A DNA stretch of 61,053 nucleotides, filler included, from Dugesia japonica (lineage: Eukaryota): NCBI GenBank assembly GCA_001938525.1. It is 6 parts of 6 records of this genome, joined end to end, with 100 filler letters (N's around TTAATTAATTAA, not from the genome) between each part and the next. Parts side by side here need not be neighbours in the genome. Positions count along the whole stretch, not along the records: positions 1 to 13,763 come from MQRL01419954.1; 5 more parts are not named here. One strand, 5' to 3'. The position numbers were made by a program, and so were the translations under genes. How positions within the stretch are numbered: the stretch's first letter is position 1; every line of letters begins with the position of its first letter. The notes beneath the pieces are model-generated. The model ran no database searches. It was not told the origin of the DNA and saw nothing but the letters and a program-made list of their open reading frames with translations. Shown here piece by piece: positions 7,976 through 13,763 of the stretch.

Positions 7976-10202
7976 CTATAAAGAAAATACAACTAATGCT
8001 ACACGATTAGGTATTTATATAACAATGGTGGAATAATATAATAGTAATTACGGAATTATCTTTTGGCATCACAGGCATCGATCATCCGTCAGTATGGTTG
8101 GATGTGGATCATCATGTTACTTGCATTCATTCATATACATCTCATTACTACTCATTCATTCTCATATCTTTTATCGTGTCATCAACATTATTATTTCGAT
8201 TAAACTTTCATTTGAAAGATATGTTAATGGCGATCTATATCCCTCTAACTGTCAGCTGGTTCTCCTGTGGTGGATTATATCTTTGAATTTCTAAAGGTAA
8301 AACATATCTCAGAGTTGATATATTAATCAGCAATTTTAAAAGAGTAAATTTTATAATCAAAAATAAAGAATTCATAAACATAAACGAAATTGATATTTTC
8401 ATCACATTTACACTACCATTTGTCAATATACACCAGAAAATCATTAAAGAAAAAAAATTATCATGAGAGAATTCAAACACACCAACACCTAACCACATCT
8501 CTTTCCTACTCAAATCTATTAACACATTTTTAATCATAAATCTCTATCAACTGTCAACAACTCTTTCATGTTTATAAACAACTCTTTCAGAGTCCGATTT
8601 TAGCATCATCTTTTTTTATTCGACATTTGAGCCCAATATTTTTATACACATTCTCTCATCACCGGTATTACTCCTTTCACAATCATCTGTATCTCATTAT
8701 CATTTATTCACTATCATTTCTCGTTATCCCCTTCCTCATTATACTATCCTCGCTTATTAACACTTATCAACTCATGTCTTTTACAGTCTTATCATCATCA
8801 TATAATCTTTGTCTCACAATTATCATTGACAATCATCATATAATATTCGTTTCACATTTATCATTGTTAATTCTATTTAATCTCATATATTCATAAACAT
8901 GGACAGCATAATCATATATTATCATAACATTTGTAACAAAACTCATCATAACTCATGGTGACTCGTGATGGATGATCTCGTGAAGCGAAAGACTAAACGG
9001 TATCGGCGACCACTGCTAGCAAAGCTAATGAGTAGTGATCGTCCCCTCAGTCCCTCTTTATAGTCGAATATATGATTTTTTAAAAAAATAAAATGACTCA
9101 AATTACTTTTCGATTTGTTCCGATCCTTCAATGTGAAAGAATTCTACTTGGCACTTTTAACAATAAGTGAACAAGAGTTTAAAATGAAAATTGTTAGTCT
9201 GATTTTACAGAAATTTGCTTTGCCTTTTATACCTCACTGTATCGTCAAATTTTGACAGTTATAGTTGGTGTCCACTTCAGATTTCTGTTAATGCAAATAA
9301 TTGTACGTTGTTCACCCGTAGCTTCCACATAGATGTCCAAATATGGGCGTGATTATTTTTATTTTGTGTTAATTCTGTAGCGGATTATGTGCTCACAGAT
9401 GTTCTATATTTTTTTCCTCAAGTAGAGAGGCTTTAAAAATAGTATTTTTCTTAAAAAATAATAATTTTCTGAAACTTGTCAGGCTTTAGAAATAGCGATA
9501 ACTCCACAATCACATGCAAATATAAACATATCAATCCTAAATTCTTGCATAAAATCATCAGATCTTCTTCTATGTATAATTTTCTTGTTATGATTCCTCC
9601 GGGTTCATTATAAATAATAATATTTATTGAATAATAATAATTTTAATTATATTTATCGATAATAATAATAATTTCACATTTTTATATTTTTTATAAAATT
9701 ATAATAATGTTGGGGTGAAACACCCAGTCAAAGAGAACTAAGACCACGGTGGTCGCCAACTGTAGGATACGAGAAGAAAAGAAAGCTGCACAAATATCTC
9801 GAAGATGATTAGAAAGAGAAGAAGAACATATACAACTATCAGAAAAGGTTGTAAACCAAAGATTAAATAAACCGCATAAATGAAGCTGATAATAATTAAC
9901 TCGAGCAATCAAGCGAGCGCCCATCGAGGCTATCAATCAAAGAAAATTATCAAATCATTAATTCAATAAATAAGAAAATTATTTAACAATTAATTAATTA
10001 CCAAGAAAATATTAATTATTTTAAATGCAAAATAAAATAAAACAAGGTCGAAATCCGTTTCTTGCAAATAACTTTGCTCCGGGAAGTCGCAGAACTCCAG
10101 CGCAAGAAAATTCAAGAAGAGCGAAGAACGGGACATCTAAATTTTATCATTAAAGAATTCCACCTTCATCCAGAAGGGTGTGATCGAGATCCAAATATTG
10201 AG

Positions 10203-10403
10203 CCAATAAGAACCTAGAAAATAAACATGAAACAAAGACCAGAAAATCACATGGCAACTTAAAAATAGCCACCAATAGACACTCTAAAAGTCTTAGAAAA
10301 ATTCTGAAACTCAGCACCATTACCAATAGAAAACGAAAAAATTTGAGTTAAAAATAGGAACCAATGACAATGGTGTCGAGATGTATCGGGGAAGCTATAT
10401 AAA
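10203..10403 (+). promoter_or_regulatory. Pol II promoter: four CCAAT boxes followed by TATATAAA
   Basis: CCAAT at 10203, 10272, 10323 and 10361; TATATAAA at 10396-10403; related ATTGG boxes in copies A and D; TATA conserved in copies A, B and F. Confidence 0.65.
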
Positions 10404-11504
10404 CCCCAGAAAAAACTTAGAAAACCACCTTAAAATTTCTCGTTATTCAGCATCAATTATTGTGTGAAATCATACCGTGCCTGATACGAAATATTGTACA
10501 CGTTATTGGAGAAATCAGTCAGTGAAAAATTCCACCTTTACAGCGGTTTATTTTTAGAAAAGTAACAATTGAAATTATTGGTTGCATTTTAGAAAAATAG
10601 AACCGGTAAATATCAGAAGCGCAAGTGAAATATTTTAGTCAAAAATCAATATCGACAACATTCCCGTTGCAGCTACGAGAAAATTATCAACAAGTGAGTA
10701 TGCGTTTAATCTGCTTGATAAGTTGTATGTCAATAATTGTTTCAGTATATTTTTTTGTATGGAACGAGTATCAATAAATAAACATTTTTAATTTGATTTA
10801 ACTATCTAAATTTCTATAGAAATTAATAACGGGAAAGTTCCTCGTAAGATATAGTTGAGTGTTAACTTAAATGAAAGCGCGACAAATGTTATTTTCCCTC
10901 CAACTCAATATTGAATAATTCTAACACACCGATTAAGGTGAAGTAATTAGCCATGCATGCATAGCTCTCCTATTGGAGTAATATCTAAATCCCATTTATG
11001 TTTTTAGCACTGATAAAATTAACTATTCACGCATATCGTGATACAATCGGGATTTGGTCAATGAATAAGAAATTTTTGTTTTGGTTGTGCACTAAAGCTA
11101 GCTGATTATATTTCAACGTGCTCATATGCAATAGCTCAGTTGGAAGCAATGTGTGTGATATTAGTTGTAACAAACCAAGTCCTAATTAATGGTGACTAAA
11201 TCACTCTTCCAATGAGTCATTTCCACAAGCCATAATTCATATCAAATATTTGCAGTATCACTATAACCAAGGTTCTTTGGTAGTCATATCTTGGCAATTA
11301 GTGTATGGAAATTTTGCTTATTTCAATGCGACCGGGCCAATTTGGAATTATTTATTATGCTTTGAACAGTGTCCCTTTGGGGAATCTTCTCAAAATTGGA
11401 ATATGTCCTTTTTGTTGCTCAAATTTTTCATGCAACCATATTCATGGATATTGCTCACTGTTACACTGACAAACACCGCTGATATTTTTCATAAAAATCA
11501 GGAG

Positions 11505-11670
11505 ACATAAGGTGCTCAAACTAATTCGGAAACAGCGTGAGACCGTCAGATTAAGACAGTTAGTGGCCCAACTATTAACAAGGGGAAAATAGAACATCCA
11601 GACGAAACGGATTTAGCTTGCTTCGTGGAGATGTTCCCCTCAGTGATCCCCACAGATATCGATGCATAGA
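11505..11670 (+). pseudogene. Cargo ORF remnant (VLKLIRKQRETVRLRQLVAQLLTRGK/IEHPDETDLACFVEMFP)
   Basis: One-base frameshift at ~11589; conserved with the copy A peptide. Confidence 0.65.
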
Positions 11671-11842
11671 GTATCCCCTTTTTAAACAAGAATGCGACCC
11701 GTCAATTGCTGTTAATTGTTAGACAATAACTTTGCACGTTGAATAATTATATTTTGTTGTTTATTTCTACTTTTCACTAATTAAACTAGACTGAAAAATC
11801 TCCTATATTATAATTTAAACAAAGCTTCGATATAATTATAGA

Positions 11843-12199
11843 ATGGAATCTATCTGGGAAAGGATAATCAATCGACGAACCCGTCGAATAATCTTTCGGC
11901 GACATCACAACCCCTACAATCATGACGCGGGCATCTTAGCCGACAGGTCTAATTTGCCCCCAGTGGAGTCCATTGTAACTCGTTTAAGAGATTTTGGAGA
12001 ACGTCAGCAATATCAAACTTGAACGGGCCCCGATCGAACCCTTGCGATGAACTTCCGATATCAGCCTACAATGCCACCCCCAGCTCCCGCGGTACAGGCC
12101 TTTATCTCTTACCTTCTCTGGGGGGTTAGGGAGCCAACCGGAGTGGCCGATAGTGAAAATACAGCACCCAATGTTGACACTAATAATAATCCCCAATGA
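11843..12199 (+). pseudogene. Cargo ORF (MESIWERIINRR...), one internal TGA
   Basis: 118-codon frame following an ATTATAG acceptor; GC-rich relative to flanks. Confidence 0.5.
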
Positions 12200-12356
12200 A
12201 TGTTGTTTTGTTTTAGAATACGAATAAATAGGTGTCTTGTTTAGAGTTCAATTATATTATATCTTCACGTTAAGATTAAGATAAACTTCTGTTTCCAGTT
12301 ACATTACGTTGTTGTCTTGTTCTTATCTTCGTAATTAATAAAAAATAATATTTCAG

Positions 12357-12724
12357 TGCATTCCTCCCTGACCAAATCGCAGGCTCCAAATAAAAAGCTG
12401 TGGGAAACCAGTAAAGACCTGGATCTCACCTGGGATCTGTATAAGTGAGCCAAACGACGATGGGAGGCCGAGATAGCCACGGCTCATAGTAAGGTGACCA
12501 GGTATAAGAAAAAATGTATCGCCTTCAGAAAAGAAGTAGAGGCCTCCCACCTACAGGAACGAGCCTGGAAAAAACAGGTTTAATCCTTTGCTGAAGTTAT
12601 CCGGTCCGGCCATGACCGTGAAAATAAACTGGTTGAAGATATTTTACATCTCCGAACTCGTATACCCCTCGAACCGTTGATGATCGACAAGAGCACTCAG
12701 ACCCCCGGAAACAAATTATCTTAA
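12357..12724 (+). pseudogene. Coiled-coil cargo exon (CC1-like) with C-terminal KSTQT
   Basis: Follows a TTTCAG acceptor; 121 codons with two stops; ...FAEVIRSGHDRENKLVEDILHL resembles ...MADNIKTYANREEVLISTVRTL of copy B. Confidence 0.55.
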
Positions 12725-12832
12725 TTTAGTTATAAATAAACTTGTTATCTGAGATTTTTTTACAATTTTATCTTAATGGTTCATTTAATTTCTTTAGTCA
12801 AATTAGATTATAATAATCAAAGCTTCTTTTAG

Positions 12833-13224
12833 TGCCTCGTATCAATTTCCCTAACAATCTTCGCCGGTGTCATCGTATCATGCGCCGCCTTCTGATCGAA
12901 AGACACTTGAAGTGTAAGACCGACCGGCCTCTACTTAAGCATTTGTCCCAGAGGGATAGATTGAGAAAGACGTTGGACTCAATCGTGAAGAAGCAGAACG
13001 ATCTAGCAGTCCAAGCTAAAGCATTGGAAGCCAAAACCAAGTAATTGCTACCGAGGAAGATCGAGTTTTTAAAACAATATATCGCCGATCTTTCTCGCCA
13101 GATTGGCAACCCAGATTGGGTCCCTTGGGACGATAACGACGATGTTGCCGCCTTTGAGTTTGAGGCAACTAACCTGGATCAGTGGTTAGACCCTGGCGCG
13201 CCAGATGAATTAGAAATGTCATAA
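12833..13224 (+). pseudogene. Last cargo exon, basic coiled-coil then acidic tail, one internal TAA
   Basis: Follows a CTTTTAG acceptor; frame continues past the 13044 stop to ...DPGAPDELEMS*; AATAAA at 13291. Confidence 0.5.
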
Positions 13225-13763
13225 TAATATATGTTTCAAGTATCACTGGCTTAAAATTTTGTGTATGATGAGGGAAAACTAATGAACCCGAATAAAAAGG
13301 CTTATCGGTGTGCAACTCCCATTAAGAGAGAGGTCAACCACCATATGCTGAAAACCTGACCTAGGGGCGTTAGGTTAAATTCTTGAAAGGGTCCCCTGAG
13401 GGCTGATTTTTCCCCAGCCACACTATTCTCCATCCAACTCAGGTAGGACCCCAACAATAATAATACATTTCTTGTGTTTAAACCTGACTCATAATCTATT
13501 ATTTTATTATTTATAATGATCATGATGATTTATTCTGTTTTCCTCTATAATTTCTCTCTAAAATATCAAAATATTTTAATATAATTATTTGTTTTAATCT
13601 TTCTTTTTCTCTAATCAATATAATTTTATTTTTAATACATGGATATTTTCAACACATTTATACAAATTATAAATAATAATAGATATTCCTTGTTTTATTG
13701 ACATTCTTCTTTTCGATTACTTTGACTTATTTTCTGAGCACATTTTACCTTAGCCATCTAATT

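Follow-up and report, generated by a model that had tools for sequence, protein, structure and literature searches.

A 3.75-kb mobile unit with cargo reading frames in Dugesia japonica and its probable origin as a solo long terminal repeat

A stretch of the AT-rich Dugesia japonica genome that is 61,053 nucleotides long and joined from six parts (NCBI GenBank assembly GCA_001938525.1; hereafter the window) contains a complete element of 3749 bp, E3, and five relatives (E1, E2, E4, E5, and E6; Table 1). E3 is a genuine mobile unit whose cargo genes evolved under selection and are probably spliced, and the units are probably solo long terminal repeats (LTRs) of long-LTR planarian Gypsy elements of the Burro/GLT type, the parent of which would have carried gag-pol. 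This reading is supported by a 4-bp target duplication, a 3′ end shared with other contigs, and the lack of enzyme domains inside the units, and the ends are regarded as LTR-like because their inverted repeats measure 9 and 7 bp and are followed by no convincing subterminal repeat.

Boundaries and relatives of E3

E3 starts with TGTTGGGGT and finishes with ACCCCAACA, its ends forming a 9-bp perfect inverted repeat, and ATAA flanks it on each side (ATAATAA fits too). Three contigs of one DNA run (X1) skip 3753 bases, that is 3749 plus 4, and so represent an empty site; the duplication is therefore 4 bp long, modulo variation in the length of the AAT run in which it lies. The complete 3.75-kb copy with TG...CA ends and duplicated target described in the initial annotation is thus borne out. 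Three further joints of 3768, 3775, and 3786 bases, each in a single contig, carry foreign letters between the flanks and do not fit an empty site; they resemble diverged host-repeat paralogues. Because the flank is a very high-copy repeat, all of these joints may derive from paralogues rather than alleles. The host repeat around E3 (9560-9707 and 13457-13600) has very high DNA depth.

The 3′ boundary recurs well beyond this copy. Among the best 18 of 83 loose ends, at least 23, 20, and 20 contigs (of 490, 409, and 494 in runs X1, X3, and X4, respectively) depart exactly at 13456, and they enter unlike AT-rich flanks (agreement about 0.5), which marks 13456 as a family boundary. At the other end the inverted repeat is followed by a small hairpin motif, three matches to which were found on scanning the window, all at 5′ ends (E1, E3, and E6). 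Direct similarity between the 5′ and 3′ parts of E3 is weak (reached by 4 of 300 shuffles, in one of eight tests), and a subterminal inverted repeat is unconvincing in both E3 and E6, where 66 and 11 of 300 shuffles, respectively, reach the observed score. A conserved RNA fold at the 3′ end is not supported, as predicted folding of the terminal region is not above that of shuffled sequences (z -0.68) and double changes occur at only 3 of 41 pairs among three sequences; Rfam returned no matches. E3 was rejected as a non-LTR retroposon with an (AAT)n tail, since the AAT run is already present in the empty site and a defined 5′ terminal motif occurs in three copies. The single metagenome match of the terminal 19-mer (L001) lies inside a reverse transcriptase-like coding stretch with no other similarity and is attributed to chance.

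DNA depth along E3 is uneven: it is 18-71 over 10640-11580, reaches at least 10^4 at the core of open reading frame (ORF) C and at the 3′ end, and mostly lies between hundreds and about 1500 in the remainder. Depth is not copy number, and the profile indicates a rare middle together with a larger set of distant relatives. Many group A copies (defined below) abut AAT runs: the AAT repeat continues for 6-9 bases past 13456 in 11 of 48, 20 of 45, and 9 of 42 contigs (X1, X3, and X4) among the matches listed, against a background in the window of 356 (6-mer) and 79 (9-mer) of 118510 positions, although this share is inflated because short contigs place more easily when they match the flank. If true, the bias would be a target preference absent from the titles and abstracts searched. 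The group B ends in the window are not next to AAT runs. Within E1 itself there is a degenerate 89-copy AAT array (519-786).

The six copies, on four contigs, fall into two DNA groups, A (E1, E3, and E4) and B (E2, E5, and E6), so that the number of relatives and contigs initially reported stands, whereas their assignment to one family does not. Members of group A are 60-70% identical over their 5′ 0.4-0.6 kb (z 14-40); those of group B share their 3′ 220 bp (z 12-64), and E2 and E6 also a 5′ part (z 18.5). No similarity between A and B was detected at the DNA level beyond the termini, the pairs tested in 5′ and 3′ windows giving z <= 0.8, and homology of ORF C between the groups is not claimed, its score being reached by 23 of 2000 shuffles as compared with 19 for a coiled-coil control (profile 3.1 bits, E-value 3.9). 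The groups are linked by termini and layout only: the 5′ hairpin motif is present in three copies and CCCAA-N-A in four. TG...CA ends, initially ascribed to the whole family, are found in E3 alone, the other copies starting with TATTGGG and ending with CCCAATA or CCCAAGA, and TNTTGGG is itself common, 7 of its 14 matches in the window lying away from family ends. The copies are also unequal in length (1.8 vs 3.7 kb) and differ in their middle content. The group B motif matched no viral contig. The copy first placed at 39682 (E5) has its true end at 39830. A terminus-like hairpin motif lies at 39682-39701, 130 bp past that end, and the segment from there to 38600 does not significantly resemble any of the copies (best z 2.9). 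Different short tandem arrays occupy the predicted first intron of the group B copies (40435-40588, 58683-59002, and 8794-8866).

No transposition enzyme was found inside the units, in agreement with the earlier reading. Pfam yielded no family in any of the six frames of E3, read through with X at stops, or in the nine sense frames of E1, E2, and E6, and the same read-through scan recovered the decayed integrase of the neighbouring Gypsy element as a positive control. For E4 and E5, tblastn with pol and Tc5 sequences from the window itself detected no enzyme within the units, the sole match being flanking Tc5 sequence at the edge of the E4 stretch.

Table 1. Features of E3 and its relatives in the window.
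Feature	Position	Strand	Remarks
E3, complete group A element, 3749 bp	9708..13456	+	termini, duplication, empty site; 3′ end common to other contigs
Target duplication ATAA, left copy	9704..9707	+	inside short AAT run of high-copy host repeat
Target duplication, right copy	13457..13460	+	
5′ terminus of E3: 9-bp inverted repeat, then small hairpin motif	9708..9725	+	E1 and E6 carry this motif at their 5′ ends
5′ upstream region conserved in group A	9924..10435	+	65% to E1, 62% to E4
TATA box of E3, aligned with E1 TATA (1991)	10396..10403	+	putative function
Predicted non-coding leader exon, ending in A before GTGAGT donor (10694)	10430..10693	+	start approximate; donor aligns with E1 1657
Variable middle segment, rare among relatives	10640..11580	+	DNA word depth 18-71, vs several hundred or more in most other parts
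E3 ORF A tail, homologous to intact 58-aa ORF of E1	11506..11669	+	frameshifted near 11575, decayed
E3 ORF B, 118 codons	11843..12199	+	own ATG one base after TATAG acceptor; one stop
E3 ORF C exon, coiled-coil-like, begins AG/TG	12357..12724	+	two stops; core motif common to high-copy, transcribed relatives
E3 ORF D exon, coiled-coil-like, acidic tail, begins AG/TG	12833..13224	+	one stop
AATAAA, candidate polyadenylation (polyA) signal	13291..13296	+	160 bp before E3 end
3′ terminal region of E3, common to high-copy relatives	13300..13456	+	ends with 9-bp inverted repeat; DNA depth 10^4 or more
E1, group A, cut by contig end	1..2598	-	5′ end at 2598; TATA 1991, donor 1657
E1 ORF A, intact, 58 aa	88..264	-	ATG three bases after acceptor
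E2, group B	6797..9470	-	3′ end 6797, 5′ end unrecognisable; TATA 9231, donor 9106
E2 ORF B, intact, 162 aa	7487..7975	-	ATG directly after acceptor; predicted long helices
E2 ORF C exon, intact, coiled-coil-like	6944..7293	-	begins AG/TG
E4, group A 5′ fragment interrupting Tc5/pogo transposase ORF	28735..29370	-	right limit approximate, terminus unclear
E5, group B 3′ part and ORF C remnant	39830..41144	-	runs into assembly gap
E6, two-ended group B copy, 1833 bp	57716..59548	-	TATTGGG...CCCAATA, no duplication; TATA 59296, donor 59156
E6 ORF C exon	58025..58341	-	begins AG/TG, two stops; 44% identical to E2 ORF C

Cargo reading frames and their predicted expression

The cargo is real: it consists of GC-rich ORFs (46-49% for B, C, and D) between AT-rich spacers (19-27%), mostly orphan coiled coils, and the description of the units as multi-gene cassettes is upheld in this respect. 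The several ORFs initially credited to the 3.75-kb copy are present in E3, but all four are broken there, with one stop in B, two in C, one in D, and A frameshifted and decayed; intact frames are found in E1 and E2, and both ORFs of the latter are stop-free in a way reached by none of 2000 shuffles each. ORFs A and C evolved under purifying selection. For ORF C, comparison of E2 with E6 gives a proportion of synonymous differences (pS) of 0.85 and of nonsynonymous differences (pN) of 0.29 over 81 codons, while control frames give dN/dS values of 0.87 and 2.07 (shifted) and 0.66 (antisense), and the ORF A block of E1 and E3 gives pS 0.88 and pN 0.10 over 21 codons. The selection tests cover these two ORFs, as ORFs B and D are each represented by a single copy in the window.

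Searches for homologues, which covered near lengths only, found none for ORF C of E2 (6 candidates) or for a four-sequence alignment of ORF C (459 candidates), and Pfam and PDB gave only sub-threshold coiled-coil matches for the cargo. A single-sequence model of ORF B from E2 (predicted local distance difference test score 68, predicted template modelling score 0.35) matched no viral fold with an E-value below 0.59. None of the 35 pattern matches in a scan of metagenome proteins was confirmed.

A common layout suggests how these frames may be expressed. In E1, E2, E3, and E6 a TATA box lies 0.25-0.7 kb inside the unit and is followed after 125-335 bases by a donor-like site, and all four leader donors are preceded by A (background 83 of 219). 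Seven ORF exons have a defined start, a count that leaves out ORF A of E3, where the start is undefined; four of these begin yAG/TG in phase for A + TG = ATG (background 149 of 2337), and the remaining three have an ATG within three bases of their start. ORF C of E3 and E6 has no early Met. From sequence, the layout predicts that splicing of the leader A onto TG exons would create start codons. Spliced-leader trans-splicing was considered and is less favoured, as the flatworm spliced leader ends in AUG and exons in TG phase fit a leader ending in A better.

E3 itself is nearly silent, being almost absent from oligo-dT RNA, and one RNA run (X10) has no reads over its last 70 bases. The RNA reads that match the ORF C core stem from diverged relatives; judged by eye, they extend the frame with a similar peptide. 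No RNA start or end was seen for the units in the RNA runs, and the TATA box, though conserved, and AATAAA are both candidates.

Solo LTRs, alternative origins, and known systems

On the solo-LTR reading, the element inserted with a 4-bp duplication into an AAT run, in a flank common to many relatives. Its parent would have been an LTR-gag-pol-LTR element in which recombination between the LTRs left a single one. Transcription from a TATA promoter situated 0.25-0.7 kb inside the 5′ end would produce a non-coding leader ending in A, and this leader would join either exons starting with TG, creating an ATG, or exons with their own ATG, giving one short protein per splice form. The proteins encoded by ORFs A and C evolved under purifying selection, and such accessory, mostly coiled-coil proteins may have served the parent in trans, oligomerising with element or host proteins. 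E3 has since decayed, and PIWI silencing would be a likely cause of its near-absence from oligo-dT RNA.

Several observations weigh against this reading. No direct LTR pair occurs in the window, where contigs measure about 10 kb, and there is a primer-binding site (PBS) at none of four 3′ ends and a polypurine tract (PPT) at none of three 5′ ends there, which fits solo LTRs and stand-alone units alike. The strongest continuation past 13456 is the AAT repeat, with no PBS consensus, though a consensus based on counts could hide a minority. Five of the seven recognisable termini are not TG/CA. E6, the only other two-ended copy, has no duplication, which is thus found in one of two, so that recurrence of the termini and duplication in other copies is borne out by the 3′ end shared with at least 20-23 contigs per run but not by E6. 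The donor and acceptor counts are not independent, the copies being homologous in pairs, and no spliced read was found in three RNA runs (75, 8, and 2 reads, of which 84 of 85 matched only partly). Unless there is a second promoter close to the 3′ end, a transcript start at ~0.7 kb and polyA at ~3.6 kb would give an R region of ~2.9 kb, which is unusual for an LTR. Finally, primers for GLT and GLT2, repeats of S. mediterranea that take their names from consensus libraries of Repbase, have no matches in the window, so these can at best be different families, and a likeness to GLT2 described below was judged by eye and not from a tool alignment.

Of the alternatives, an origin as stand-alone, non-autonomous gene cassettes that never form LTR pairs and are mobilised at the DNA level by an integrase provided in trans (Gypsy, Polinton, or Ginger-like), which would recognise the TNTTGGG ends and 5′ hairpin, fares best, though it is still unlikely. 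All six copies in the window are solitary and have neither PBS nor PPT, a unit that has its promoter close to the 5′ end and its polyA signal close to the 3′ end would be self-contained as a gene, and the copies differ in length and middle content. However, solo LTRs are equally expected to be solitary, multi-kb LTRs exist in planarians, and ends of 7-9 bp without subterminal repeats give an excising enzyme little to act on. Since a transcript running from TATA to the polyA signal contains neither end, an RNA route needs two LTRs. Solo LTRs and integrase-mobilised units had both been proposed at the outset; integrase-type ends, the 4-bp duplication, and the lack of enzymes are in keeping with that pair, between which the PBS and PPT counts do not separate.

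It is a good deal less probable that the units are LTRs of a non-autonomous element of the large retrotransposon derivative or terminal-repeat retrotransposon in miniature kind (LARD/TRIM-like), paired around a short internal region without gag-pol and borrowing enzymes from Burro or another Gypsy element. The LTR-like ends and duplication fit this equally, and no same-strand gag-pol lies beside any copy apart from an unrelated small Gypsy element 1.2 kb past E5, yet neither a pair nor a PBS was seen in the window, and purifying selection on the cargo is no less compatible with a virus-like parent that replicates.

Internally deleted or cargo-loaded DNA transposons of the Ginger/GingerRoot type are very improbable. 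Ginger1, Ginger2/TDD, and GingerRoot resemble the units in having TG...CA or TA...TA ends, 4-bp duplications (Ginger), introns, and cargo gene fragments (GingerRoot), and the TGTTG start of E3 with its 4-bp duplication fits Ginger, Ginger2 preferring AT-rich targets (PMC2836005, PMC6839031). However, the terminal inverted repeats (TIRs) given there are 40-270 bp long in Ginger1, 50-180 bp in Ginger2, and 100-150 bp with 6-bp duplications in GingerRoot (PMC2836005, PMC6839031), as compared with 9 and 7 bp here, where 21 of the first 50 bases match. E3 has no long TIR, transposase, CCGG target, or 6-bp duplication; TGTNR ends with a 4-bp duplication occur in E3 alone, at ATAA rather than CCGG/CCGT, and the Pfam scans revealed no transposase remnant in the six frames of E3 or the nine sense frames of E1, E2, and E6. 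Chance termini around decayed host genes or a non-coding repeat, for which the commonness of TNTTGGG and the broken E3 ORFs without homologues (ORF C having been searched) might speak, are refuted by the empty site and the exact 3′ end in at least 20-23 contigs per run; purifying selection between copies also speaks against them, and they hardly merit credence.

Among known systems, the solo-LTR reading draws most on Burro and GLT. E3 is likely a new variant of the long-LTR planarian Gypsy LTRs, set beside Burro/GLT by descriptions only, and Repbase, Dfam, or Grohme 2018 may already describe these units or relatives. Burro has accessory ORFs, and its internal region of up to 25 kb and total length above 30 kb imply multi-kb LTRs (PMC6431247). 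Burro/GYPSM1 of Schmidtea, compared by description only, thus resembles the units in its implied multi-kb LTRs, high copy number, accessory ORFs, planarian-type host, and Gypsy-type ends; it differs in having an upstream accessory ORF and extra domains that lie in the polyprotein, the passages at hand describing no LTR genes or spliced leader (PMC6431247). The units contain no gag, pol, BIR, MATH, or env. According to the part of PMC8532177 available, GLT2 is silenced by SMEDWI-2 and derepressed on smedwi-2 knockdown, in keeping with the near-absence of E3 RNA, and that part gives no structure, class, or ORF description. Over about 400 of its 485 characters, the GLT2 probe (PMC8532177, Table S1) shows by eye a stop, an AT-rich spacer, a TTTAG/TG junction, and a helical ORF arranged as in the units, and this ORF, again by eye, loosely resembles ORF C in a [FW]xx[DE]IAxxH pattern. 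The plant Gypsy element Ogre, as summarised in PMC6431247, also has long LTRs (1.9-6.5 kb) and extra ORFs of unknown function, but these are internal, whereas here several lie inside a terminal-repeat-like unit.

LTRs are commonly regarded as non-coding, and a solo LTR as a promoter that is spent. Accessory genes that reside in the LTR or are spliced are known in retroviruses, namely sag of mouse mammary tumour virus and nef of human immunodeficiency virus, and foamy viruses have a donor in R. Rotifer LTR elements have spliced ORF3s (PMC5408684). Both systems resemble the predicted organisation of the units in that accessory ORFs derive from spliced messages whose donor lies close to the start site; they differ in having single ORFs, mostly outside or just overlapping the LTR, rather than up to four exons with predicted junction-made start codons. 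None of the titles and abstract openings listed dealt with planarian LTRs that contain genes, with start codons made by splicing, or with targeting of AAT, and the accessible supplements of PMC11410931 and PMC6884822 held no matches.

If the units are solo LTRs, each leftover would amount to a small cluster of genes with alternative splicing. When PIWI silencing fails, proteins could then be made from at least tens of group A copies and probably from far more distant relatives, which would bear on the effects of GLT-type derepression in planarian cells, and a junction-made start codon would tie translation to splicing and hide such genes from ORF-based annotation. It is possible, if doubtful, that the units represent animal mobile units in which integrase-type ends enclose a multi-gene cassette, one leader supplying the A to alternative orphan coiled-coil exons under purifying selection and group A homing to AAT microsatellites; such units would either never pair or be LTRs with a gene-filled R of ~3 kb that works after loss of the retroelement.

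Other elements in the window

A decayed Gypsy internal region (2935-6480, +) with zinc knuckle, reverse transcriptase, RNase H, and integrase (Pfam) and a purine tract near 6465 is flanked by E1 and E2 in opposite orientation. On the minus strand, 38915-33600 comprises a short LTR-like segment (about 38915-38627), followed near 38620 by a PBS-like motif that is tRNA-Met-like and then by a decayed gag with a zinc knuckle; at about 36400-38400 an opposite-strand piece containing another knuckle-like stretch interrupts the region. E5 was considered as the 5′ LTR of these downstream gag-like ORFs and rejected, since the separate LTR-like piece and PBS-like motif intervene. E6 abuts a region of broken frames (56520-57715, +) that has no Pfam match but contains motifs similar to those of a protein-primed DNA polymerase B of Polinton type.

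The Tc5/pogo transposase recognised by Pfam at 28054-28734 (+) is cut off by E4, and over 21 bases it matches the S. mediterranea SMAR25 probe with two mismatches, as none of 100 shuffles did, which makes a planarian host probable. Two inverted arrays of about 252-bp units (23587-26337 and 31356-33048), the units of which read as helix-turn-helix-like repeats, possibly belong to a host gene family with amplified DNA-binding repeats. An exon of 60S ribosomal protein L6 lies at 20727-20966 (+; best match 59%), and a tandem array of 57-58-bp units in about 11.6 copies (45893-46552) spans an assembly gap.

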